Source: a virus
Taxonomy: Duplodnaviria; Heunggongvirae; Uroviricota; Caudoviricetes
Virus record (IMG/VR): IMGVR_UViG_3300029504_000019
DNA length: 9,716 nt
Reading direction: 5' to 3' (one strand)
In this document: positions 1 through 9,716 of the stretch, piece after piece
Layout of the letters: each line of letters opens with the position of its first letter
Position numbering within the stretch: position 1 is the stretch's first letter
Made by a program: the position numbers and the translations under genes
The notes under the pieces: generated by a model
The model's database searches: none
What the model saw: only the letters and a program-made list of their open reading frames with translations
Told to the model about the DNA's origin: nothing

Positions 1-2474
1 ATCTGCAAGGTCCGGCAACTTCCGACTCCGGTATAGAAGTTAACCAGAATATAGCTGTCGCCAGAGCGGGTGACATTGTAAGCGCCTGATTCGGCATTCC
101 ATGGAACGCCCCCATCCGCATCGGCATACGCATCCGTTGCTCTTCTGGCAAAAGCAGCCACATGCGCGGCGGTTAAAGTGATATCAGTAGAACCATCAAA
201 TGGAACACCGGATATTTTTCTTGCAGTCTGAAGTTTTGTAGCAGTTGCAGCATTACCAGTGGTGTTCTGATTACCCGTAGTGTTTACACCTGGAAGGTTA
301 ATATTTGCAGAACCGTCGAAAACAACTCCACCGATAGATCTTGCCGTCTGCAATTTCGTGGCTGTACTTGCATTACCATCCAATGAACCAGTTAATCCAC
401 CTGTAACAGACAACGGACCTGAAACTGTTCCTCCGGTTGTTGGCAGTGCTCCAATATCTAACGGCGTCGGTTTCTGATGTGTGCTATACATCGTATAAAC
501 AACACCATCGGTAACGCTGGAAGGCTTACTCGCTGAATATGTTGGCGATGTATAAATAGAAACTGTCGCATTTGCAGTACAATCCCAATGGATATTTACA
601 CGAGTCGCATAATTGCCAATCTCAACGTAAATATCATATGTATCGCCGGATGTGTTGATCCAGGCGAAATTCGTTAATCCGACGGCTGTACGCTTCCACA
701 AAGCCCCGGTAATTCCTTTGGGGTTTCCATTGCCTGCTCGTAGAACCAGTTCTGAAATGCCTGCCTGATGTGGGGAACCGACGTTGTAACCAGCGCCACC
801 AATCAATGCGATGTAAACGATGGAACTCGCTTGTGGCATGGTAACCGTAGCCAGTTTGAACCACCCAGCCCCGCCAGAGAAAGACATCGTTACTGAATTT
901 AAAGTACCAATATCTTTCGGCGTTAATGTTATATCCGCAGTCAGTGCTTTTCCGTTAACTTTTCGGTTAGATGGCACCCTGCTATTCGCATTGTCATTGG
1001 CTGCTTTAACTGCTTTTGGCGTTGCGGCCAGCGATTCACTGGTGCTATCAACAGCACTGCTAAGTTTCACAACACCTTTAGTTGTAAGGCTTGCGTCTTC
1101 CATCGCAACTGCACCGGCAATCTCTTCAGCACGATCAGCAGCAGCTTCCGCACGGGTCGCAGCGGATTCAGCAGCAGTTTTGCTCTGAGATGCTGCCGTC
1201 GCACTGCCTGCCGCCTCTGTTGCTTTCGTGGATGCCGTCGTGGCGCTGCCCTTCGCTGCTGACGTCTGTCTGGTCGCCTCATCTTTTGAAGCAGACGCAG
1301 ATGATGCCGATGACGCTGCCGAACTGGCGGACGATGCGGCTGCCGTTTTTGAGGATTCTGCACGGGTTTCCGACGCTTTCGCATTCGTTTCGGATGTCTT
1401 CGCTGCGGAAGCAGACCTCGCTGCTGCGCTGGCCTGTACAGCGGCTTCGCCAGCCTTCGTTGTGGCTGTTGAAGCGGACGATGCAGCACTTTCTGCCGAT
1501 TTTCCGGCGGCGGTGGCACTGGCTGAGGCCTGCCCGGCACTTGTTGACGCGGCACTGGCAGACGACGCAGCCGCTGTTTTTGAGCCTGCCGCAGCTGAGG
1601 CACTCTGTCCCGCTGCCGTTTCAGAAGCCTTGGCGTTCGTCTCGGACGTTTTTGCCGCCTTCGCAGAATTTGCTGTCGCCGTTGCCGAGGAAGCTGCGCT
1701 GCTGGCGCTCGAGGCTGCGCTCGTTTCTGATGATTTTGCCGCCTCTTTTGAAGCCGACGCATCCCGGGCTGAGGTGGCAGCTTCTGACGCTTTCGTGGTC
1801 GCGGTGGATGCTGAAGTGGCTGCTGATTGTTGTGACGCTGCCGCATTCGTTTCTGACGTTTTTGCCGCAGCGGCACTGGTGGCCGCCGCGCTTTTTGAGG
1901 ACTCTGCAGCGGCAGCACTTTTTGATGCTTCAGTGGCCTTTGCTGATGCCGTTCCTGCGCTGGAAGACGCTGACTGAGCCGACGAAGCGGCCTGTCCGGC
2001 TGACGTGCTGGCTGCGCGTGCTGAGCCTGCAGCATCAGTCGCATGGGTTGCCGCCTCACGGGCAGATGTGCCGGCATCGCCGGCTGACTTCTTCGCGGCT
2101 GCCGTGTTCTGTGCCACTGCGGACGCGTTACGCGCCACCTCTTCCACCATCAGTTCAAAACGGCGCAGTGCCTCTGGCCGGACATCATCCTCCGTCATTG
2201 CACCGAGGAAATCATTCAGTGTGCCCGGCTTTGAGTCCTCATATACGGTGATAATCCCGGCGTGTGACGGCGGGAATCCCTCCACCAACAGACTGACGCT
2301 GTACTGACCATACTCGACGTCCATTGTGTAACGCCCGGCTTCATCCGGGTTTTCTGAGGCCACTGTGTTCACCACCACCGTGGTGCTGTTGCGCCTGGCC
2401 TTTAGCTGAATGGTGCAGTTTTGTATCGGCTTACCTGCGCCATCTTTCAGTACACCTGAAATCCGTACTGCCAT
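1..2474 (-). CDS. stf: Side tail fiber protein Stf, 5' portion (ATG at 2474..2472; at least 824 codons, no stop before window start)
   Basis: Hand translation of the minus strand from the ATG at 2474 is open to position 3; an in-frame stop lies just upstream at 2516..2514. The N-terminus (MAVRISGVLKDGAGKPIQNCTIQLKARRNSTTVVVNTV...YGQYSV...GFPPSHAG...TVYED) matches my recollection of the lambda/Rac Stf N-terminus; it is followed by a long Ala/Ser/Thr-rich region and the conserved tail-fiber motif TTKGVVKLSSAVDSTSESLAATPKAVK. GGGGGG sits 3 nt upstream of the ATG as a Shine-Dalgarno. Not in the supplied ORF track because it lacks a stop in the window. Confidence 0.85.
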   Translation of the reverse strand, partial: MAVRISGVLKDGAGKPIQNCTIQLKARRNSTTVVVNTVASENPDEAGRYTMDVEYGQYSVSLLVEGFPPSHAGIITVYEDSKPGTLNDFLGAMTEDDVRPEALRRFELMVEEVARNASAVAQNTAAAKKSAGDAGTSAREAATHATDAAGSARAASTSAGQAASSAQSASSSAGTASAKATEASKSAAAAESSKSAAATSAAAAKTSETNAAASQQSAATSASTATTKASEAATSARDASASKEAAKSSETSAASSASSAASSATATANSAKAAKTSETNAKASETAAGQSASAAAGSKTAAASSASAASTSAGQASASATAAGKSAESAASSASTATTKAGEAAVQASAAARSASAAKTSETNAKASETRAESSKTAAASSASSAASSASSASASKDEATRQTSAAKGSATTASTKATEAAGSATAASQSKTAAESAATRAEAAADRAEEIAGAVAMEDASLTTKGVVKLSSAVDSTSESLAATPKAVKAANDNANSRVPSNRKVNGKALTADITLTPKDIGTLNSVTMSFSGGAGWFKLATVTMPQASSIVYIALIGGAGYNVGSPHQAGISELVLRAGNGNPKGITGALWKRTAVGLTNFAWINTSGDTYDIYVEIGNYATRVNIHWDCTANATVSIYTSPTYSASKPSSVTDGVVYTMYSTHQKPTPLDIGALPTTGGTVSGPLSVTGGLTGSLDGNASTATKLQTARSIGGVVFDGSANINLPGVNTTGNQNTTGNAATATKLQTARKISGVPFDGSTDITLTAAHVAAFARRATDAYADADGGVPWNAESGAYNVTRSGDSYILVNFYTGVGSCRTLQ
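190..370 (-). repeat. Tandem ~40-codon tail-fiber repeat inside stf (two copies of the motif G-N-A-[AS]-T-A-T-K-L-Q-T-A-R-x-I-[SG]-G-V-x-F-D-G-S-x-[DN]-I)
   Basis: Stf residues about 700-720 (NASTATKLQTARSIGGVVFDGSANINL) and 740-765 (NAATATKLQTARKISGVPFDGSTDITL) repeat at a 40-residue spacing; the underlying DNA segments around 210-250 and 330-370 are visibly similar. Confidence 0.5.
1125..2117 (-). repeat. Ala/Ser/Thr-rich low-complexity coding region of stf with dispersed ~30-bp near-identical direct repeats
   Basis: Stf residues about 120-450 are almost entirely A/S/T/K/E. The motif AAKTSETNA recurs at residues about 202, 272 and 357, matching near-identical DNA blocks at 1381-1409, 1633-1665 and 1846-1876. 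The region is GC-rich and open in several frames on both strands, which explains the spurious 249-, 336- and 386-aa track ORFs. Confidence 0.6.
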
Positions 2475-2485
2475 ATTCCCCCCAC

Positions 2486-2511
2486 AAAAAAGCCCGCCTG
2501 AACCGGCGGGC
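2486..2511 (-). terminator. Rho-independent terminator downstream of the lom fragment (minus strand)
   Basis: Read on the minus strand, a perfect 7-bp GC-rich stem (2511..2505 pairing with 2498..2492, 6-nt loop) is followed immediately by a run of six T (2491..2486). It lies 28 nt after the lom stop and just upstream of the stf Shine-Dalgarno and ATG. Confidence 0.6.
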
Positions 2512-2538
2512 TGTCATAACACTGTGTTACCTGGCTAA

Positions 2539-2814
2539 TCAGAATTTATAACCGACACCAACGATGAAACTGTTGGTACGCCAGTCACCGCTGCCGGAGC
2601 CTTCATAAGCGACGTCAACGGCCACGGATTCGGTCGGGTTAAACTGCACGCCAGCTCCCCACGCCAGAGACGTGTTGCTGTGGCGACCGTCATCACTTCC
2701 GGTCAGCACATCGTGCGTTTTCCCCTTGTTGTCAGTTACGCGGATATAATCCCCGGAGAAAGTCGACACACGGCTGTAAGCCATAACCAGTTGCAGCAAC
2801 CTTTGACGCTCGTT
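2539..2814 (-). pseudogene. lom: lom (Lom/Ail/OmpX-family outer membrane protein), 3' fragment only; signal peptide and N-terminal barrel strands absent
   Basis: The translation ends ...SLAWGAGVQFNPTESVAVDVAYEGSGSGDWRTNSFIVGVGYKF, matching the lambda Lom C-terminus (...AYEGSGSGDWRTDGFIVGVGYKF) and the terminal Phe typical of beta-barrel outer membrane proteins. The frame is closed by a stop at 2817..2815 and the track ORF begins at a TTG, so only about 85-90 of roughly 200 codons are present. Confidence 0.8.
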
Positions 2815-2987
2815 TCACACCTGCCGAACTGTGAATATTGAATCCCTCCAGACGCCCCAACACGCCCTCACGCAGTAGCTGTTCAGTGCCGGATTCATTC
2901 ACTTTAAACAATACAGACTGTTTTCCGCGCAAATTAGCAATGGCAGTGGAGCCAAGCACCATCTGCAGATCGGTTGTCGGTGCGCCG

Positions 2988-3284
2988 TTAACCAGCCTCA
3001 TAAATTGCCAGCTCGTTCAGCTCTCCGGAGAGACTGGTAAACATGCTGTTAATAGCAGTGCGGTTAACCTTTCTGACGCTCGCCAGAAGTGACTCCAGGC
3101 GCTTAACGGTAAAATTACCTGGATCGAGGCTGTCCAGTGCTATCAGCAGGCGAGCAGTAAGTTCCGCATCGCTGTCATTCAGTATTTTCACCATTCTGGC
3201 AGCCACGCCAGTGCTATAGCGGGATATCCAGACTGCATGAGCAATTGATTCATCACGCAGCCGTTCATTCACGGTTTGCATCAT
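2988..3284 (-). pseudogene. Stub (98 codons) of the gene that follows portal, possibly the N-terminus of a head-morphogenesis/minor capsid protein, ending prematurely
   Basis: Its ATG (3284 or 3281) overlaps the portal stop (3267..3265) by about 20 nt, typical translational coupling in a morphogenesis operon, but the frame closes after 98 codons and no capsid or tail genes follow. The functional assignment is a guess from position. Confidence 0.35.
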
Positions 3285-4671
3285 TGATTTCCATCAGCAT
3301 TACACTCTGATTTTTTAATTCATCGATCACTTCCTCTGGACGGGAATCCTGATCGATAAATTTCAACGCCTGCAACACCCGAACCGCATCAATCTGACGT
3401 ATATCACCGCCCTGACGCAATGACTGAACAGCCAGCGCGGAGGATGAGTCAAACACCTGGGCAGATACATCCAGTTCAGTGCGCACATCCACATTGCCAC
3501 CGCAACTCTCTCCGATCCATTCCGCCATTATCTGGAGAATATTATCGAGGGCATCTTCGAGGGAGTTCGCCATTGTATAAAGCGGCGAGTTTTCCTGCAT
3601 TCGCTCTTCATTAGTCTGATCAACAGATTTGGTGGATGTATTTTCAGCACGCAGAAGTTTAGCGCCGGCATGACGCATCTGATTTTCCAGCTTCTCAAGT
3701 GATGTTTCGCCAGATTCTATCGCTGCGCCACTATGTTCAACATATTCGAGGCCATTTTTTGTTCTGTCCTCAAAAATCGTAGCGGTGGATGCACCAACCG
3801 TCAGTTCTTCATTCCTGTCCAGCCCGTAGGCCACCAGCAATGGAACGCGGGTAACATGAAGAATATTGTCCTGCTCGCTCTGGCTTTGCCAGTGCTTGAT
3901 ATTCAGCAAGCCAAGATTAAGCAATGGCGGTGTACCACGCATAAATCCTGTTTTCTTCGTGTACAGTGTTACCAGAGGAATATCATCACGGCTGGTATTC
4001 CATGACTCATGAAGCGTCCAGACAGATTCGCCATTAGTGCCTTCGCTACGTCGATAAATTTCAACTCGACGGGGCATAATATGGCGGATCTGCTCCACCT
4101 TCTTCTGCCCGAAATCATCACCATCAATAATGATGACCTCTTTTATACGCAAATCAGTGAGAACAACTTTCCCTTTTTCAACTTTCGATTTCCATCCAAT
4201 AACCTGGCGTGGATTCAGCATCGTAACGTACGGACGACCACCGGTCGCGTTTTCATCGGCTTTTGTACGAATCTCTTTCATATCCGTTCGTGGATAGTCC
4301 ACCAGCGCATGTGCCACACCATACTGAAATGCGAGGCTGAAAAATTGCTGCGCCCACACATCCAGTCGGCTCCCCTCCATGTCGATATTTTCTGCATATT
4401 CCCTGATTTTTGCCGGCGTTTCCTCACTCAATACTGTCGGCTCTGCAAATATGCGCCCAATATTTTGCTTGATGCTTTCTTCATACACAGGAAGTAGCGT
4501 AGCCACAGACAGGCGTTTTTTATAAGCGTCTTCATCTTCGTTAGGCCATTTTGGGAGATAATTTTCCCCCTGCCTGCGCATTTCAAGCGTACCGCCCATC
4601 AGTGCGTCGTTAATATCCCACGCCTCCAGCATATCGTTATAGTCGAGGTTGGGTGTTGATATATCAGCCAT
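3265..4671 (-). CDS. Probable phage portal protein (468 aa)
   Basis: Its ATG (4671..4669) lies 2 nt after the large-terminase stop (TAA 4676..4674); the size of about 470 aa, acidic C-terminal region and position directly after TerL are typical for portals. No motif-level confirmation is possible without a search. Confidence 0.6.
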   Translation of the reverse strand: MADISTPNLDYNDMLEAWDINDALMGGTLEMRRQGENYLPKWPNEDEDAYKKRLSVATLLPVYEESIKQNIGRIFAEPTVLSEETPAKIREYAENIDMEGSRLDVWAQQFFSLAFQYGVAHALVDYPRTDMKEIRTKADENATGGRPYVTMLNPRQVIGWKSKVEKGKVVLTDLRIKEVIIIDGDDFGQKKVEQIRHIMPRRVEIYRRSEGTNGESVWTLHESWNTSRDDIPLVTLYTKKTGFMRGTPPLLNLGLLNIKHWQSQSEQDNILHVTRVPLLVAYGLDRNEELTVGASTATIFEDRTKNGLEYVEHSGAAIESGETSLEKLENQMRHAGAKLLRAENTSTKSVDQTNEERMQENSPLYTMANSLEDALDNILQIMAEWIGESCGGNVDVRTELDVSAQVFDSSSALAVQSLRQGGDIRQIDAVRVLQALKFIDQDSRPEEVIDELKNQSVMLMEINDANRE

Positions 4672-4673
4672 AA

Positions 4674-5981
4674 TTAAATCCGAAGTGATGTGACTCTTCC
4701 GGTCGGTTTGACAATAGGGAATTGCTTAACGATGAAATAACCTCCGGCATCATTCGGGTGATCATTGCCAGATTTTTTATCAGGCTCCCCCTTCTCATCC
4801 CAGACCTGTTGCTCCAGAGATTCGGCATATAACGGGCAACGCTTCACATTAACTTTATAGCGACGCTCACCATTGGCATTGCAGAACATTGCATTCATTG
4901 AGTTAACGCGATCTTTTACTGGCGGGTTCGAGCTGTTCACCACAACGTTAAAACCAGCCTGCTTAAGCTGGGCTATATCCGTCGTACTTGCGTTACTTGA
5001 TTTTCTGGAATCCCCGGAAGCATCTGGATAAATATAAATTTCCCTCACTTTCCGGTAATCATTCCCATCATACAGCCAGAAGCGTTCTTTAATGATGCGG
5101 ATCATATCCGGCGTATCGTAGGCATTGATGATTTCAGTTACCGCACATGGAAGCCCCAAACGCAGCACATGGACGATTCCCGCCATCTTTCCAACGTTAA
5201 AATCCATCCCAATATAAATCGGCTCCCCTGGCTGCTCCACTTCTTCGCAATTATTCAGTTTCCGGTCAAACTGATGGTAAACAGTACCACTTGTCAGGTT
5301 AGTAAACTGTCCTCGAAGATAGGCTTTAATCAGCTCTGGAGGGTATGATTCAAGAAGCGAAGGAATGTAATCTGCTGGCAGGTTCTTTTCATTATCGAAA
5401 GTAGATGCCTGCACCAGACCATACAGTGAGGCCAGCTCTGTTTTTTCACGCACGGCTTTAACAAACTGCTCGTAGACAAATTTGAATCCCTCCGGCGTGG
5501 TTGTAACGTCAATACCGTTGCGAAGTCCATCAATCTTATAACGCATACGTGCAATTATCTTGCGCCACGCCGTTCTGGCTTTTTCCTTCGGCAAAATGTC
5601 CAGTTCATCCACCAACGCATTACCAATTTTGAAACCGACGATCGTTTGTGGCTTCTCCATCGATCTGCAGATAGTGGTTCCCCGATACTGGCGTCCGTAA
5701 TAAAAGTGAACCTCTTTATTTCCCTCATTAATTTTTACGTTCAATCCCCAGTCAGCAGCAACTTCTTCCACTGTAAGGTAAAAAATATCGCGAATTTGGG
5801 GATACGTTGGCGCAAAATATCCCTGATTTATACCTGGATGCTCCCAAATCCCCTTGCATATGCCGCCACAACCAACCCATGTTTTGCCCGAGCCAAAACC
5901 AGCAATATAGGCTTTAAATTTATGGGGCATTGAAAGAAATCGCGCCTGAGGCACATTAAGCGTCGGAGAGATCATCTTCAT
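4674..5981 (-). CDS. Terminase large subunit (ATPase plus RNase H-like nuclease)
   Basis: Walker A motif (YIAGFGSGKTW) near the N-terminus, Walker B-like (NALVDELDI), and a C-terminal nuclease domain with acidic motifs (IYIGMDFN, YIYPDASGD, GNDHPNDAGGYF). The track start at 5984 is GTG; ATG codons follow at 5981 and 5975, and AAGGAG sits 8 nt upstream of the 5975 ATG, so the true start may be 5975. Confidence 0.9.
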   Translation of the reverse strand: MKMISPTLNVPQARFLSMPHKFKAYIAGFGSGKTWVGCGGICKGIWEHPGINQGYFAPTYPQIRDIFYLTVEEVAADWGLNVKINEGNKEVHFYYGRQYRGTTICRSMEKPQTIVGFKIGNALVDELDILPKEKARTAWRKIIARMRYKIDGLRNGIDVTTTPEGFKFVYEQFVKAVREKTELASLYGLVQASTFDNEKNLPADYIPSLLESYPPELIKAYLRGQFTNLTSGTVYHQFDRKLNNCEEVEQPGEPIYIGMDFNVGKMAGIVHVLRLGLPCAVTEIINAYDTPDMIRIIKERFWLYDGNDYRKVREIYIYPDASGDSRKSSNASTTDIAQLKQAGFNVVVNSSNPPVKDRVNSMNAMFCNANGERRYKVNVKRCPLYAESLEQQVWDEKGEPDKKSGNDHPNDAGGYFIVKQFPIVKPTGRVTSLRI

Positions 5982-6684
5982 CACTCCTTACTCTGGCATC
6001 AACCACATTAATATTGATCGCCACAGGCTGGGGATGTTCATTATCTTCCACCGTTTCGATCTCTTTGCGCAGCTTCTGGTTTTCCATTCTGCGCCGTTCA
6101 ATTTCCAGTTCCTGTAGCCGTTTATCTGCACATAAAGCCCCGCCAGCAGAAAACAAACGCAACAATTCACGCCGGGCGGCAGCCTTATCCTCCAGCAGGA
6201 TCTCAACGCCGAATTTTCCGAATTTTGCCCCTGCATATAATTGCCGCGCATCCCCATCAAGCAGAGTGGTATCAGCCATATAAAGCTGTCCCGTTCCCTC
6301 ACCGCAGCACTTCGGGCAGTCCGGATTGGGTATGGCGTTATCAACAAAGCCGAGGCCTCCATATTCCGGTTCGGGTTTGCCATCTCTGGAAGCCTGCGCC
6401 GCTGCCTTGTCGAATTCTGCTATATCGCGCCACTGGTAGAGATGATTCTCGCCCCAGCAATAACGGCAGTTAACACGGCGAAATTGTGCAAGCTGATTGG
6501 GGTCGGCCAGGACAATAGCCATCAACTGACTCACTAGTAAATCCAGGTCTGCGGTATAGCGTTTCTGGTACTGATTGCGGAAGTAGCTGATAGCGCGAAA
6601 AACCCTGGCATTTCTAAGCATACGACTGGCGTTGCTGTTAGCTGTCGCACCTTGCCCCTCATAACCGGCTACCGGGCAAAACAT
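5956..6684 (-). CDS. Candidate terminase small subunit / DNA-packaging protein with a Cys4 zinc-ribbon-like motif, coiled-coil segment and acidic tail
   Basis: A 242-aa ORF directly upstream of TerL, overlapping it by about 25 nt. It contains CRYCWGENH (Cys 73/76) and CPKCCGEG (Cys 123/126/127), a charged heptad-like segment (QELEIERRRMENQKLRKEIE) and an acidic C-terminus (SDEDDLSDA). The call rests on position and architecture, not on recognised homology. Confidence 0.5.
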   Translation of the reverse strand: MFCPVAGYEGQGATANSNASRMLRNARVFRAISYFRNQYQKRYTADLDLLVSQLMAIVLADPNQLAQFRRVNCRYCWGENHLYQWRDIAEFDKAAAQASRDGKPEPEYGGLGFVDNAIPNPDCPKCCGEGTGQLYMADTTLLDGDARQLYAGAKFGKFGVEILLEDKAAARRELLRLFSAGGALCADKRLQELEIERRRMENQKLRKEIETVEDNEHPQPVAININVVDARVRSDEDDLSDA

Positions 6685-6723
6685 CCGTCAACAGTTCATC
6701 AATTTCTGTCGGGATGAAGCCTG

Positions 6724-7089
6724 TCAGGGAGACACAAAATCAGCATTGATTAGGTCCGACAGCTCCATCCGCAACAGATCTTCATCCCAGCCAGCATTCA
6801 TCGGCAGGCGATTATCTGCCAGGCGGTACGCCTTTTTCTGCTCATCCGTCAGGCCAGACAGAACAATGACCGGAACAGAATCCATTTTGAGCATTTCAGC
6901 CGCCATAACACGACCGTGACCCGCAATAATTTCGCCCTTTTCGTCAATCAGCACCGGATTAGTCCAGCCGAATTGCTTAATACTTTCTACCAGTTGTGCC
7001 ACCTGCTCAGGGCTGTGCGTCCTGGCGTTGTGCGCATACGGTGACAATTCTTGTAATGGGCGATAGACTATCTTTAATTTCTCGCTCAT
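6724..7089 (-). CDS. ParB-like nuclease domain protein (ParB N-terminal / sulfiredoxin fold), 121 aa
   Basis: The translation has the ParB N-terminal signature around GWTNPVLIDEKGEIIAGHGR (conserved GxGR arginine finger) and a start context of AAGG then ATG. Small ParB-like proteins at this position are common in Rac-like prophages (the K-12 counterpart is ynaK), but I do not assert identity. Confidence 0.75.
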   Translation of the reverse strand: MSEKLKIVYRPLQELSPYAHNARTHSPEQVAQLVESIKQFGWTNPVLIDEKGEIIAGHGRVMAAEMLKMDSVPVIVLSGLTDEQKKAYRLADNRLPMNAGWDEDLLRMELSDLINADFVSP

Positions 7090-7103
7090 ACAGCCTTGCT
7101 TTA

Positions 7104-7140
7104 TGAATAAAACGCACCCCAGCAGCCAGTGCTACTGGGG
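7104..7140 (-). terminator. Possible intrinsic terminator after trkG (minus strand)
   Basis: On the minus strand an imperfect hairpin (CCCCAG 7117-7122 pairing with CTGGGG 7135-7140, plus inner pairs 7124-7126 with 7131-7133) is followed by GTTTTATT. The stem is interrupted and the T tract short, so this is tentative. Confidence 0.4.
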
Positions 7141-7226
7141 ACGGAGGGGTTGCTGGTAAAGTTAGGTATTGGATCAATGAGTGAGTCAACATAATATTAA
7201 ACTCACAATTATAAATCAGCCATATA

Positions 7227-8684
7227 TTAGGAGCGCCAAAAAAAACCTGAAAACAATATAATAACAGGATAAATTTCAAGGCGACCAAGAATCATAGCTA
7301 TGCACATTAAACATTTTGCAATGTCATTAAGCACTCCGAATGACGATGCAGTAGCCCCAAAACCTAATCCCATATTATTAATACATGCAGCCACTGTTGC
7401 AAATGATGTAAGAAAATCATATCCCATACCATTTAACACCAGTATAAAAAACACCGTGAAGAGAGTATAAAGAAAAAAGAAACTCCATACAGACCTCATT
7501 ACACGATCTGTAACTATCTTCCCTCCTACATTTACACTCAACAACGCTCTGGGATGAGAAAGCTGATTTATCTCGTGTTTGCTTTGTTTGAAAAGTATAA
7601 GAAATCGAAGTGACTTAATTCCACCACAAGTTGAACCTATACATCCCCCAAAGAAACTTGACAACAGCAAAAACACTATCGTGTGCGTGGGCCAACTTGC
7701 ATAATCCTGCGTAGCTAAACCATTATCAGTGAGCATGGAGCTGGCAAGAAAAAACGAATGAATAAAACTTCCATGCAAGTCATACATACCTATATGCCAG
7801 ACCTGGAAAGAGGTAACAATGATCACCCCTAAGGCTATTAACAGAAAGAAACGAAGTTCAATATCTCTGATTAAAGGTTTTATCGTTTTCCTGCTAATAA
7901 CAATATACCAAAGAGTGAAGTTGAAAGCCGATAGCAGGGAAAAAGAACCAGCCACCAGCTCAACCAAATAGTTATTAAAATATCCGATACTCTCGCTATG
8001 AGTTGAGAAACCACCAAGCGAAACTGTGGAAATCCCGTGACAAATAGCATCAAACAAAGGCATTCCTGCAAGTCTATAACAGACAATACAAGCAATACCT
8101 AATAAAGAATAAGTTATCCACAGTGTCCGTGACGTATCGGCCAGGCGGGGAGTGAGTTTGTCATCCTTAAATGGCCCCGGCATTTCTGACTGATAAAGCT
8201 TTGCACCACCAATACCCAATAATGGCAATACAGCAACCGCCAGAACAATAACTCCTAAACCACCTATAAAATTTAACTGTGACCGATAGTACAAATATGC
8301 CCGAGGTAATGAACTAACATCATCAATTACAGTTGCTCCTGTTGTTGTTATTCCAGAAACCCCTTCAAACAGAGCATCAATGAACGTTAAATTAAGTTCT
8401 GAGTCAATCCATAAAGGGAATGCACTAATAACAGAAAACAAAATCCAAAACATTACAATTATAATAAACCCATCACGGGTACGTAATTGAATGCCAGATT
8501 TCTTAGTTGTATACCACGCTCCGCCACCAATGCAAAAAAATATAACGAAAGTTATAAAGAAAACGAACAGGCTTTTTTCTTTATAAAACAATGCTACAAC
8601 CATTGGTGGCAACATTGAAAGACTATAGAGCCAAACCAGGAACCCACACATATGAGTAACAACTCTTACATGAGATGTATTCAT
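7227..8684 (-). CDS. trkG: TrkG/TrkH-family potassium uptake transporter (about 485 aa from the ATG at 8684)
   Basis: Polytopic membrane protein with TrkH/KtrB selectivity-filter-like glycine motifs (GVSGITTTGATV, TVSLGGFSTH, CINNMGLGFG); the sequence from MNTSHVRVVTHMCGFLVWLYSL matches my recollection of E. coli TrkG. The track start at 8702 is a TTG six codons upstream; the ATG at 8684 is preferred. The gene is visibly AT-rich relative to its neighbours. Confidence 0.9.
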   Translation of the reverse strand: MNTSHVRVVTHMCGFLVWLYSLSMLPPMVVALFYKEKSLFVFFITFVIFFCIGGGAWYTTKKSGIQLRTRDGFIIIVMFWILFSVISAFPLWIDSELNLTFIDALFEGVSGITTTGATVIDDVSSLPRAYLYYRSQLNFIGGLGVIVLAVAVLPLLGIGGAKLYQSEMPGPFKDDKLTPRLADTSRTLWITYSLLGIACIVCYRLAGMPLFDAICHGISTVSLGGFSTHSESIGYFNNYLVELVAGSFSLLSAFNFTLWYIVISRKTIKPLIRDIELRFFLLIALGVIIVTSFQVWHIGMYDLHGSFIHSFFLASSMLTDNGLATQDYASWPTHTIVFLLLSSFFGGCIGSTCGGIKSLRFLILFKQSKHEINQLSHPRALLSVNVGGKIVTDRVMRSVWSFFFLYTLFTVFFILVLNGMGYDFLTSFATVAACINNMGLGFGATASSFGVLNDIAKCLMCIAMILGRLEIYPVIILFSGFFWRS

Positions 8685-8685
8685 A

Positions 8686-8760
8686 TCTAAATATTCTTTC
8701 AATTATAACCACCTTGCTGCAATATTATGATTATACTGTATAAAATTTAACTCCTCTTAG
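8686..8760 (-). promoter_or_regulatory. AT-rich region upstream of trkG with candidate sigma70 -10 hexamers (possible autonomous promoter)
   Basis: The 119-bp gap between the Rz stop and trkG carries two perfect TATAAT hexamers on the minus strand (8707..8702 and 8735..8730), but neither has a convincing -35 element at 16-18 bp. Speculative. Confidence 0.25.
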
Positions 8761-8821
8761 ATCTTACTTCACTGTTCCTTATGAAACAATCATCAAAATG
8801 AATCATATTGTAGTTAAGATT

Positions 8822-9286
8822 TTACTTTAAACACTGCTCGGTTATGTATTGCTGAGCACCTTCAAGTTGGGCCTGCATCATTACCAGTCGTTCCCGGAGG
8901 GTGAAATAATCCCGTTCAGCGGTGTCTGCCAGTCGGGGGGAGGCTGCATTATCCACGCCGGAGGCGGTGGTGGCTTCACGCACTGACTGACAGACTGCTT
9001 TGATGTGCAACCGACGACGACCAGCGGCAACATCATCACGCAGAACATCATTTTCAGCTTTCGCATCAGCTAACTCCTTCGTGTATTTTGCATCGAGCGC
9101 AGCAACATCACGCTGACGCATCTGCATGTCAGTAATTGCCGCGTTCGCCAGCTTCAGTTCTCTGGCATTTTTGTCGCGCTGTTCTTTGTAGGCGATGGCG
9201 TTATCACGGTAATGATTAACACCCCATGACAGGCAGACGACGATGCAGATAACCAGAGCGGAGATAATCGCGGTTACTCTGTTCAT
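8822..9286 (-). CDS. Rz: Rz i-spanin (inner-membrane spanin subunit)
   Basis: Near-identical over most of its length to lambda Rz as I recall it ([21 protein letters not shown]...[44 protein letters not shown]...[45 protein letters not shown]...). N-terminal transmembrane helix then coiled coil. The ATG at 9286..9284 overlaps the endolysin stop (TGA 9285..9283) as ATGA; the track start at 9298 is a GTG four codons upstream. Confidence 0.9.
8881..9066 (-). CDS. Rz1: Rz1 o-spanin (outer-membrane lipoprotein), fully embedded in Rz in the +1 frame
   Basis: 61-aa ORF (ATG 9066..9064) with a lipobox (LVVVGC), a Pro-rich tract ([19 protein letters not shown]), and the classic embedded-gene arrangement inside Rz. 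Confidence 0.85.
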
Positions 9287-9716
9287 TGCTGACCCCACAA
9301 ACAGATTTCACGCTCAATCTCACGACGAGTCATGAGACCTTTCCATTGCTTACCGCCAGCATATGTCCAGCGACGTAGCTGATCACATGCGCCTTTGATA
9401 TCGCCCTGGTTTATTTTGCGAAGAAGCGTCGATGTTCTGAAATTGCCAGCACCCACGTTGTAAACGAATGAGTAAAGAGCGCCGCGCGTTGTTTCCGGTA
9501 TATCGACTTTGATGTACGGGTTAATTTGTCTGGCGACCGTGGCAAGGTCTTTATTCAAGAGTGTTTTGCATTCTGCTTTGGTATACGTTTTACCGAGCAT
9601 GATGTCTTTTCCTGTATGCCCGTGACATACAGTCCATACACCAACAATATCTTTGTATGGTATGTAGCTGACACCTTCCAGACCATCGTTACCACTTGGG
9701 CCAGTGATTAACACTG
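9283..9716 (-). CDS. R: Endolysin, T4-lysozyme-type (GH24) of the P21 R / SAR-endolysin kind; 5' end (SAR signal-anchor) lies outside the window
   Basis: The translation (...[36 protein letters not shown]...CLWGQQ) matches my recollection of the P21 R21 SAR endolysin, with the Glu/Asp/Thr catalytic positions (GLEG, YKDIVG, WTVCHG) present. The frame is open to the window edge, and the first track codon is an internal GTG (Val), so the gene is truncated by the window and not biologically. Confidence 0.9.

Follow-up and report, generated by a model that had tools for sequence, protein, structure and literature searches.

Gene content and assignment to the Rac family

The window, a stretch of 9,716 nucleotides from a virus of the Caudoviricetes (IMG/VR record IMGVR_UViG_3300029504_000019), consists mostly of a run of phage genes on the minus strand, as read from its list of open reading frames (ORFs). 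From the right-hand end, these minus-strand features are the lysozyme and Rz/Rz1 genes (rrrD/Rz/Rz1; 8822-9714), the potassium transporter gene trkG (7227-8702), the ParB-like gene ynaK (6724-7089), a small terminase (terS) ORF (5956-6684), an intact large terminase gene (terL; 4674..5984; Pfam Terminase_6N and RNaseH-like C domain, 99.9% identity to the prophage of Escherichia coli HZ13), an intact portal gene of 468 codons (3265..4671; Pfam DUF4055, E 5e-45), the three short ORFs under study (2988-3284, 2732-3001, and 2539-2799), and the 5' part of the side tail-fibre gene stf (1..2474), which has its start codon at 2474 and exits the left end of the window. Positions 1-2785 match 10058-12842 of the HZ13 locus (L003) at 99.9% identity (blastn), and a prophage tail fiber N-terminal domain protein is annotated at L003 9253-12531. 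The interior of stf (1067-2251) contains long ORFs in several frames and on both strands (336, 386, and 249 codons), which points to a strongly periodic, low-complexity coding sequence and no extra genes. The Rz1 lipoprotein ORF (8881-9066) is nested out of frame in Rz (8822-9298), the usual spanin arrangement, and appears intact in the window; the rzpR of the K-12 Rac prophage is a pseudogene.

The position of trkG between the lysis genes and ynaK is the signature of the Rac prophage family, found in the same order in K-12 Rac, and identifies the window as Rac-type. The lysis cassette, trkG, and the ParB-like ynaK are followed by the terminase and portal genes, and the window is 99.8-99.9% identical to HZ13. 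The prophages of HZ13, SLK172, and BL21 are found at the ompN/uspF/ynaE side and ttcA (the att site); the window and two of the contigs considered below (L004 and L006) end within the prophage. The exact portal protein is common in E. coli assemblies, typically beside a full head-tail module, and a look-up of its contexts returned mostly intact prophages or insertion sequence (IS) insertions and no new deletion junctions.

Mapping of the junctions against an intact relative

When positions 2400-3400 were used as a megablast query against 5,426 complete E. coli genomes, no genome covered 80% of the query and separate pieces matched instead. Positions 2989-3400 matched genes annotated as phage minor head protein and the DUF4055 portal, 2400-2788 matched lom and the tail fibre, and 2783-2993 fell inside genes of the P22 phage major capsid protein family in 239 genomes (termed coat protein in induced phages), with the full minor-head/scaffold region present in 719 complete genomes. 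E. coli HZ13, which has a complete structural module from terS to tfaR/pinR, served as the reference, and it holds all three pieces of the scar in the same orientation inside that one module; the ancestral state described below is read from this relative rather than directly observed.

The whole window aligned to L003 (blastn) as four collinear blocks of 99.5-99.9% identity separated by three gaps. Beyond the first block (window 1-2785, given above), these are window 2783-2990 at L003 26538-26745 (99.5%), window 2989-6671 at L003 29024-32706, and window 6657-9716 at L003 34560-37619. The junctions (J1-J3) were placed base by base in three-way alignments of the window with both reference partners. 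At J1 (2783-2785; shared ATA), lom (L003 ..12842; GCCATA/CCCGCC, the slash marking the breakpoint) is joined to the capsid gene (L003 26541..; GAGATA/ACCAGTTG) with the loss of 13,698 bp, and the window reads GCCATAACCAGTTG. At J2 (2989-2990; shared TA), the capsid gene (L003 ..26745; GCCGTTA/TCCTCC) is joined to the minor head gene (L003 29026..; CTGATA/ACCAGCCTC) with the loss of 2,280 bp, and the window reads GCCGTTAACCAGCC. At J3 (6670-6671; shared TA), terS (L003 ..32706; CCGGCTA/GTCGG) is joined to ynaK (L003 34574..; CCTGTA/CCGGGC) with the loss of 1,867 bp, and the window reads GGCTACCGGGC. Longer BLAST matches at J1 were extension artefacts, and a lom allele with ATAACC was discarded as the source of J1 when HZ13, SLK172, and LR9-2 all read GCCATACCCGCC. 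All three junctions have the form of a microhomology deletion, with two or three shared bases, no IS, and flanks at chance identity.

J1 fuses lom codon 119 with capsid codon 233 and removes the stretch bounded by lom codon 118 and capsid codon 234, with every tail, connector, and head-completion gene and the C-terminal end of the capsid. J2 fuses capsid codon 165 with minor-head codon 97 and removes capsid codons 1-164 and minor-head codons 98-370 along with the scaffold gene. Together, they account for 15,978 bp relative to HZ13, including the capsid, connector, tail-tube, tape-measure, tail-tip, and J genes, which bears out the claim of the preliminary description that this Rac-type prophage lost its capsid and tail-shaft genes by deletion. 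That description had put a single junction, between about 2815 and 3000, that joined a portal-adjacent stub straight to lom. The overall loss of head and tail genes on which it drew is real, but positions 2783-2990 are an internal capsid segment, and in intact relatives this segment is separated from lom by 13.7 kb and from the breakpoint in the minor head gene by 2.3 kb. Lom homology stops at 2785, which places J1 ~30 nt outside of that bracket, and the three-block alignment refutes a single join, now a highly improbable reading; two junctions (2783-2785 and 2989-2990) flank a 208-bp capsid fragment that had been missed.

Gene remnants and by-product reading frames

The three pieces of the scar, all on the minus strand, correspond to three truncated genes. 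The lom remnant (2539..2785) consists of codons 119-199 and the stop, identical (blastp, 100%) to residues 119-199 of HZ13 Lom, and the lom ORF matches Pfam Ail_Lom at profile positions 119-199 of 199 (E 2e-43). A full-length Ail/Lom beta-barrel has ~199 residues with a signal peptide; the N-terminal 118 codons, signal peptide included, have been deleted here, and the Lom of the window is a fragment of the family and not a functional member. The remnant of the P22-type major capsid gene (2786..2988; coat residues 165-233 by blastp) retains codons 165-233 of 379, short of a complete P22-type coat (~379 residues), and amounts to 208 bp in its original orientation when the shared junction bases are counted (2783-2990). 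Alone it has no Pfam match, and the full HZ13 protein matches PF11651. The minor head stub of the Mu-F type (2988..3284) comprises codons 1-97 of 370, with 100% identity (blastp) to HZ13 residues 1-97; it has no Pfam match, and the Phage_Mu_F domain is located at residues 153-274 of the full protein.

The ORFs called across these pieces follow from the joins. The J2 join generates the TAA stop of the 98-codon ORF, and the 89-codon ORF (2732..3001, minus strand; no Pfam match) is a chimera that, based on its translation and blastp, is composed of four out-of-frame minor-head codons, capsid codons 165-233 in frame, and a 16-codon out-of-frame lom tail. All of the sequence features first described here are present at their given coordinates: the 98-codon ORF overlaps the portal stop, the 89-codon ORF overlaps both of its neighbours, the lom-homologous ORF ends at 2539 with an in-frame stop at 2815-2817 upstream of the lom homology, and both Pfam and blastp against the full Lom confirm the missing N-terminus. 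The 89-codon ORF is mostly capsid fragment in the capsid frame. The 98-, 89-, and 86-codon ORFs are truncated or chimeric by-products and not genes. The prophage is unable to make heads or tails.

Loss of the small terminase N-terminus and the ParB region

J3 fuses terS codon 127 with ynaK codon 140. The small terminase remnant (5956..6671, minus strand) retains codons 127-364 of 364 (TerS residues 127-364 by blastp), and the 242-codon 'terS' ORF is a chimera that starts in ynaK-derived DNA (junction region 6657-6684). An earlier reading of the terminase and portal genes as intact therefore stands for TerL and the portal alone and fails for TerS, for which codons 1-126 were lost at 6670-6671. 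The missing 1,867 bp contain the ParB C-terminus, a TAGT glycosyltransferase gene, a 69-codon gene, and the terS N-terminus. Directly upstream of terS, intact relatives have a 263-residue ParB_N protein, a 310-residue TAGT protein, and the 69-codon gene (L003 33276-34992; L004 2193-4096); TAGT is the TET-associated glycosyltransferase of Pfam, and some records call the TAGT protein GREB1-related. This arrangement suggests a DNA-modification module, and no TET/JBP partner for TAGT was seen. The ParB remnant of the window (in 6724-7089) has a 1-nt deletion at ~6734 (an A at nucleotide 356, codon 119) relative to HZ13 and L004, a frameshift that ends the ORF at 121 codons, before J3 is reached.

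Occurrence of the scar and order of events

On 12 metagenome/SRA contigs there is a gene for the exact 98-residue stub protein; four of these contigs (L004, L006, L007, and L008; three samples and two assembly sources, ENA and Logan) extend leftward past J2. ERR1190754 and ERZ27272436 are examples of the carrier samples. All four carry both J1 and J2 at 100% identity, and the remaining stub contigs stop within 2 nt of J2. Such breaks would be expected if the scarred prophage was mixed with intact prophages in the assembly graph. It is scarcely credible that the arrangement is an assembly chimera or that the ORFs of 98 and 89 codons are real, conserved small genes: contigs that end exactly at J2 are what a misjoin could produce, but an identical sequence over both junctions was recovered by independent assemblers from different samples, which argues against an artefact, and the ORFs lack Pfam matches and correspond exactly to parts of 370- and 379-residue proteins.

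The combined scar was absent from the 5,426 complete E. coli genomes and was not recovered in a pattern scan of IMG/VR or a scan of JGI metagenomes; the J1 plus J2 arrangement is rare. That the retained blocks are nearly identical to intact relatives (99.5-99.9%) indicates that the scar arose recently. The contig L004 possesses J1 and J2 and has an intact ParB-TAGT-69aa-terS region, from which it follows that J3 was a later, separate event in the same lineage.

Microhomology-mediated illegitimate recombination and deletions with templated insertions are described by copy-choice and MMBIR/FoSTeS models, and the scar resembles their products in sharing 2-3 nt, lacking homology of a size used by RecA, and containing a short collinear patch from the deleted interval. 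It is conceivable, with somewhat less than an even chance, that J1 and J2 were made together by one complex replicative event of template switching (MMBIR/FoSTeS), a 16-kb deletion with a templated patch in which the growing strand came off its template, took a copy of 208 bp inside the skipped interval, and switched again. The patch comes from the deleted interval and keeps its direct orientation and collinear order, four of four contigs crossing J2 also carry J1, no intermediate with J1 or J2 alone was found in the complete genomes or the JGI metagenomes, and similarly small fragments, which are common at this locus, were kept in BL21 (141 bp), W409 (87 bp), AHB21 (306 bp), and AMSCJX04 (368 bp). 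Set against this, the separate gain of J3 in the same lineage (L004) demonstrates that serial deletions of the TA type occur, repeated deletions are themselves expected to leave small leftovers, and the 9-mer shared by the two right-hand partners (see below) has no obvious role in a template switch, with only 2-3 nt shared at the crossovers. Roughly weighed, one step is somewhat less favoured than two.

A class of junctions sharing TA in related prophages

J1, J2, and J3 all cross at TA. Other deletion variants of the prophage family, found by sampling truncated BLAST matches, were mapped against HZ13. Several were IS-mediated, including IS1 variants (ST12468, USMARC-51688, WEM25, I3, and PEC414) and variants in TB354 (IS3 and IS1), AHB21 (IS3), ECCHD184 (ISKpn26), and K-12 (IS5). 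The IS-free junctions sharing TA occurred in the window (three), A14 (two, with another that begins in TA), EC20-4B-2, AHB21 (CTA), B771 (TATTC), and an IMG/VR contig, L033 (one), and the IS-free junctions of other types shared T, TT, CA, AAC, G, CA, GGATGG, GT, TTG, and CCA. In this unbiased sample of related prophages, TA was common to 9 of the 19 IS-free junctions; simulated random deletions in the same DNA gave TA in 5.7% of junctions with at least two shared bases, and the binomial tail for TA in 8 of 11 junctions is 1.6e-8. The TA-only class rests on ~15 events.

Over the 12 nt on each side of TA, partners had 6.1 identities of 24 positions compared to 6.14 for random TA pairs, meaning that TA alone is shared. 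With 21 sites oriented from the kept to the lost side, a C occurred at the second lost position in 14 and a G at the fourth in 13 (each p ~3e-4 versus background TA sites, borderline after correction for ~100 tests), and a mirror-image G two positions before TA occurred in 12 of the 21. No inverted segments were found in 22 loci, which favours copy-choice or ordered rejoining over the free ligation of TA ends. Some relatives are much more broken up than the window: in A14 (locus L020), three TA-type junctions leave pieces of 457 bp and 1,024 bp, and in L033 there are five junctions, two of them TA-type; the pieces are collinear in both.

Reuse of breakpoint sites

The right-hand partners of J1 and J2 read as the same 9-mer, GATAACCAG, which has only four occurrences on that strand in 48 kb. 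The probability that two random positions share a 9-mer in register is ~6e-6, and simple random slippage does not predict it. When IMG/VR was scanned by pattern for further use of the two GATAACCAG sites, the result was nothing or unrelated chance matches. GATAACCA served as the right-hand TA partner three times (J1, J2, and L033). Sites of GATAACCA(G) are found at L003 26537, 28631, and 29022, with the kept halves at window 2786 and 2991, and in the late region TAACCAG is present 10 times on this strand versus twice on the other (~1.7 expected per strand).

The terS TA of J3 (HZ13 locus 32705-6; window 6670-6671) was used in four independent events with either side kept (the window, A14, where it is the right-hand breakpoint, and two IMG/VR contigs with different partners). 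It lies at codon 127, in an imperfect 14-bp palindrome, ACCGGCTAGTCGGT (L003 32692-32712), of which the left half lies in window 6657-6671. Headful-packaging phages of this type often carry pac at about this place in terS; the terS TA may be a candidate pac cleavage site, and a terminase cut would be reasonable for that site.

The TA of lom used at J1 partly coincides with the Met119 ATG (window 2782-2785). A look-up of the 81-residue Lom fragment found this same base joined to at least six different upstream partners (loci L048-L054, at about position 2500), namely the capsid gene, TAGT, two positions in J, a DNA methylase, and a tail U/tape-measure gene from a different lambdoid phage, with only TA or TAT shared where the join was readable. 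The assemblies concerned include other lambdoid prophage types, and gene callers report the 81-residue Lom C-terminal fragment as a result of the join. W409 breaks 2 nt from the lom TA, in a different lom allele. Some of the site-reuse searches could detect events only at the sites in question, and the collections searched are very large.

Candidate activities for joining at TA

The prevalence of TA and the recurrence of its sites raise the idea of a break-and-join activity that prefers TA, in place of random microhomology slippage, supplied by a terminase, a recombinase- or transposase-like enzyme, or a topoisomerase; generic microhomology models predict neither feature. We regard such an activity as possible and, on present evidence, rather unlikely. 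It would account for the excess of TA among the IS-free junctions (9 of 19 versus 5.7%), the lack of any additional identity in the flanks, the repeated use of the terS TA (four events), the lom TA (at least six partners), and GATAACCA (three times), and the weak context around TA (C in 14 and G in 13 of 21). Against it, a palindromic TA core should also yield inversions, of which there were none in 22 loci, the sample is small, the p-values for the context are borderline after multiple testing, some of the reuse searches were limited to the sites themselves, and none of the tested candidates fits.

Among the candidates, the Hin/Gin/Pin invertases cross over at the central dinucleotide of sites with AAACC/GGTTT half-site cores. 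The flanks of the 21 TA sites are unlike these half-sites and no inversions were seen; pseudo-sites for PinR or a related invertase were likewise set aside, as the invertible region of WEM25 is truncated by IS1 and has no usable sites. Extended imperfect homology around TA was not above chance, and hairpin or palindrome potential at TA sites was not enriched (p 0.22). Match scores for gyrase were not significantly higher than those of background TA sites (permutation p 0.13). The 133-bp gyrase consensus contains GGTAT-NNNN-ATACC (supplement of PMC6379681) and is reminiscent of the lom sequence ATACCCGCC. The Gabija nuclease GajA, with the site AATAACCNGG (PMC8136825), has a site resembling the ATAACC at four of the sites, though neither the position of its nick nor the other sites agree with this. 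The Rpn nucleases were rejected for their reported lack of sequence specificity (PMC5350276), and the IS5 (YTAR) and IS630 (CTAG) targets match the terS site only. Literature searches on TA-specific deletion junctions returned nothing relevant.

Discussion

Positions 2539-3284 are very probably a composite scar of deletions in a lambdoid prophage of the Rac family, whose head module is of the P22 type and whose tail module is of the lambda type. The junctions would have formed by RecA-independent, homology-independent illegitimate joining, for which the mode could be copy-choice (template switching) or break-and-rejoin. HZ13, SLK172, LR9-2, and the induced phages (vB_EcoS-...) have the same gene order and 99.5-99.9% nucleotide identity over the kept blocks, and the intact Rac-family prophages hold the 17.8 kb missing from the window, from the ParB C-terminus, TAGT, and terS N-terminus to the stretch from the minor head through the lom N-terminus, with the minor head, scaffold, capsid, connectors, tail tube, tape measure, tail tip, and J.

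The Rac prophage of K-12 MG1655 resembles the window in its Rz/Rz1 remnants, trkG, ynaK, further lom, stf, tfaR, and pinR, and in the internal loss of most head and tail genes, but it lacks terS, terL, and the portal. Its scars join ynaK to ydaY (shared TT) and the tape-measure gene to lomR, and IS5 interrupts lomR, whereas the window has kept terL and the portal, has no IS, and carries three TA-type junctions elsewhere; the preliminary description was right to set this decay state apart from that of K-12. Internal collinear deletions, often several in each prophage and with small kept fragments, also occur in LH10-b-1, BL21(DE3), B771, A14, W409, EC20-4B-2, and AHB21. These decay variants have several TA-only junctions, as does the window, with the terS TA common to A14 and the lom breakpoint within 2 nt of that in W409, but the partner sites differ in each, and many further variants are IS1-, IS3-, or IS5-mediated. 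The scar is the outcome of ordinary prophage decay, in a state that is new and distinct from those in K-12, BL21, LH10-b-1, and the other mapped variants.

It is a tentative and, in our estimate, improbable extension of these results that about half of the IS-independent deletions in the Rac-family and other lambdoid prophages of E. coli are due to an unrecognised TA-specific, homology-independent break-and-join activity that reuses preferred sites (the lom Met119 TA, the terS TA, and GATAACCA), with the scar of the window holding three of its products. The main use of the result is for annotation, in which the region should be entered as three pseudogene fragments and two chimeric ORFs and not as genes, and the scar alone adds another decay state to a well-known family of cryptic prophages. 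The TA-only class with its recurrent sites is the one feature that a specialist might not expect, and it needs to be surveyed systematically before anything is claimed. The usual account of prophage domestication is one of random deletion and IS activity; if the TA pattern holds, a sequence-specific TA-joining process with hot spots would make the erosion of prophages partly enzyme-driven and predictable, and would open an illegitimate-recombination pathway of E. coli to tractable genetic assay.
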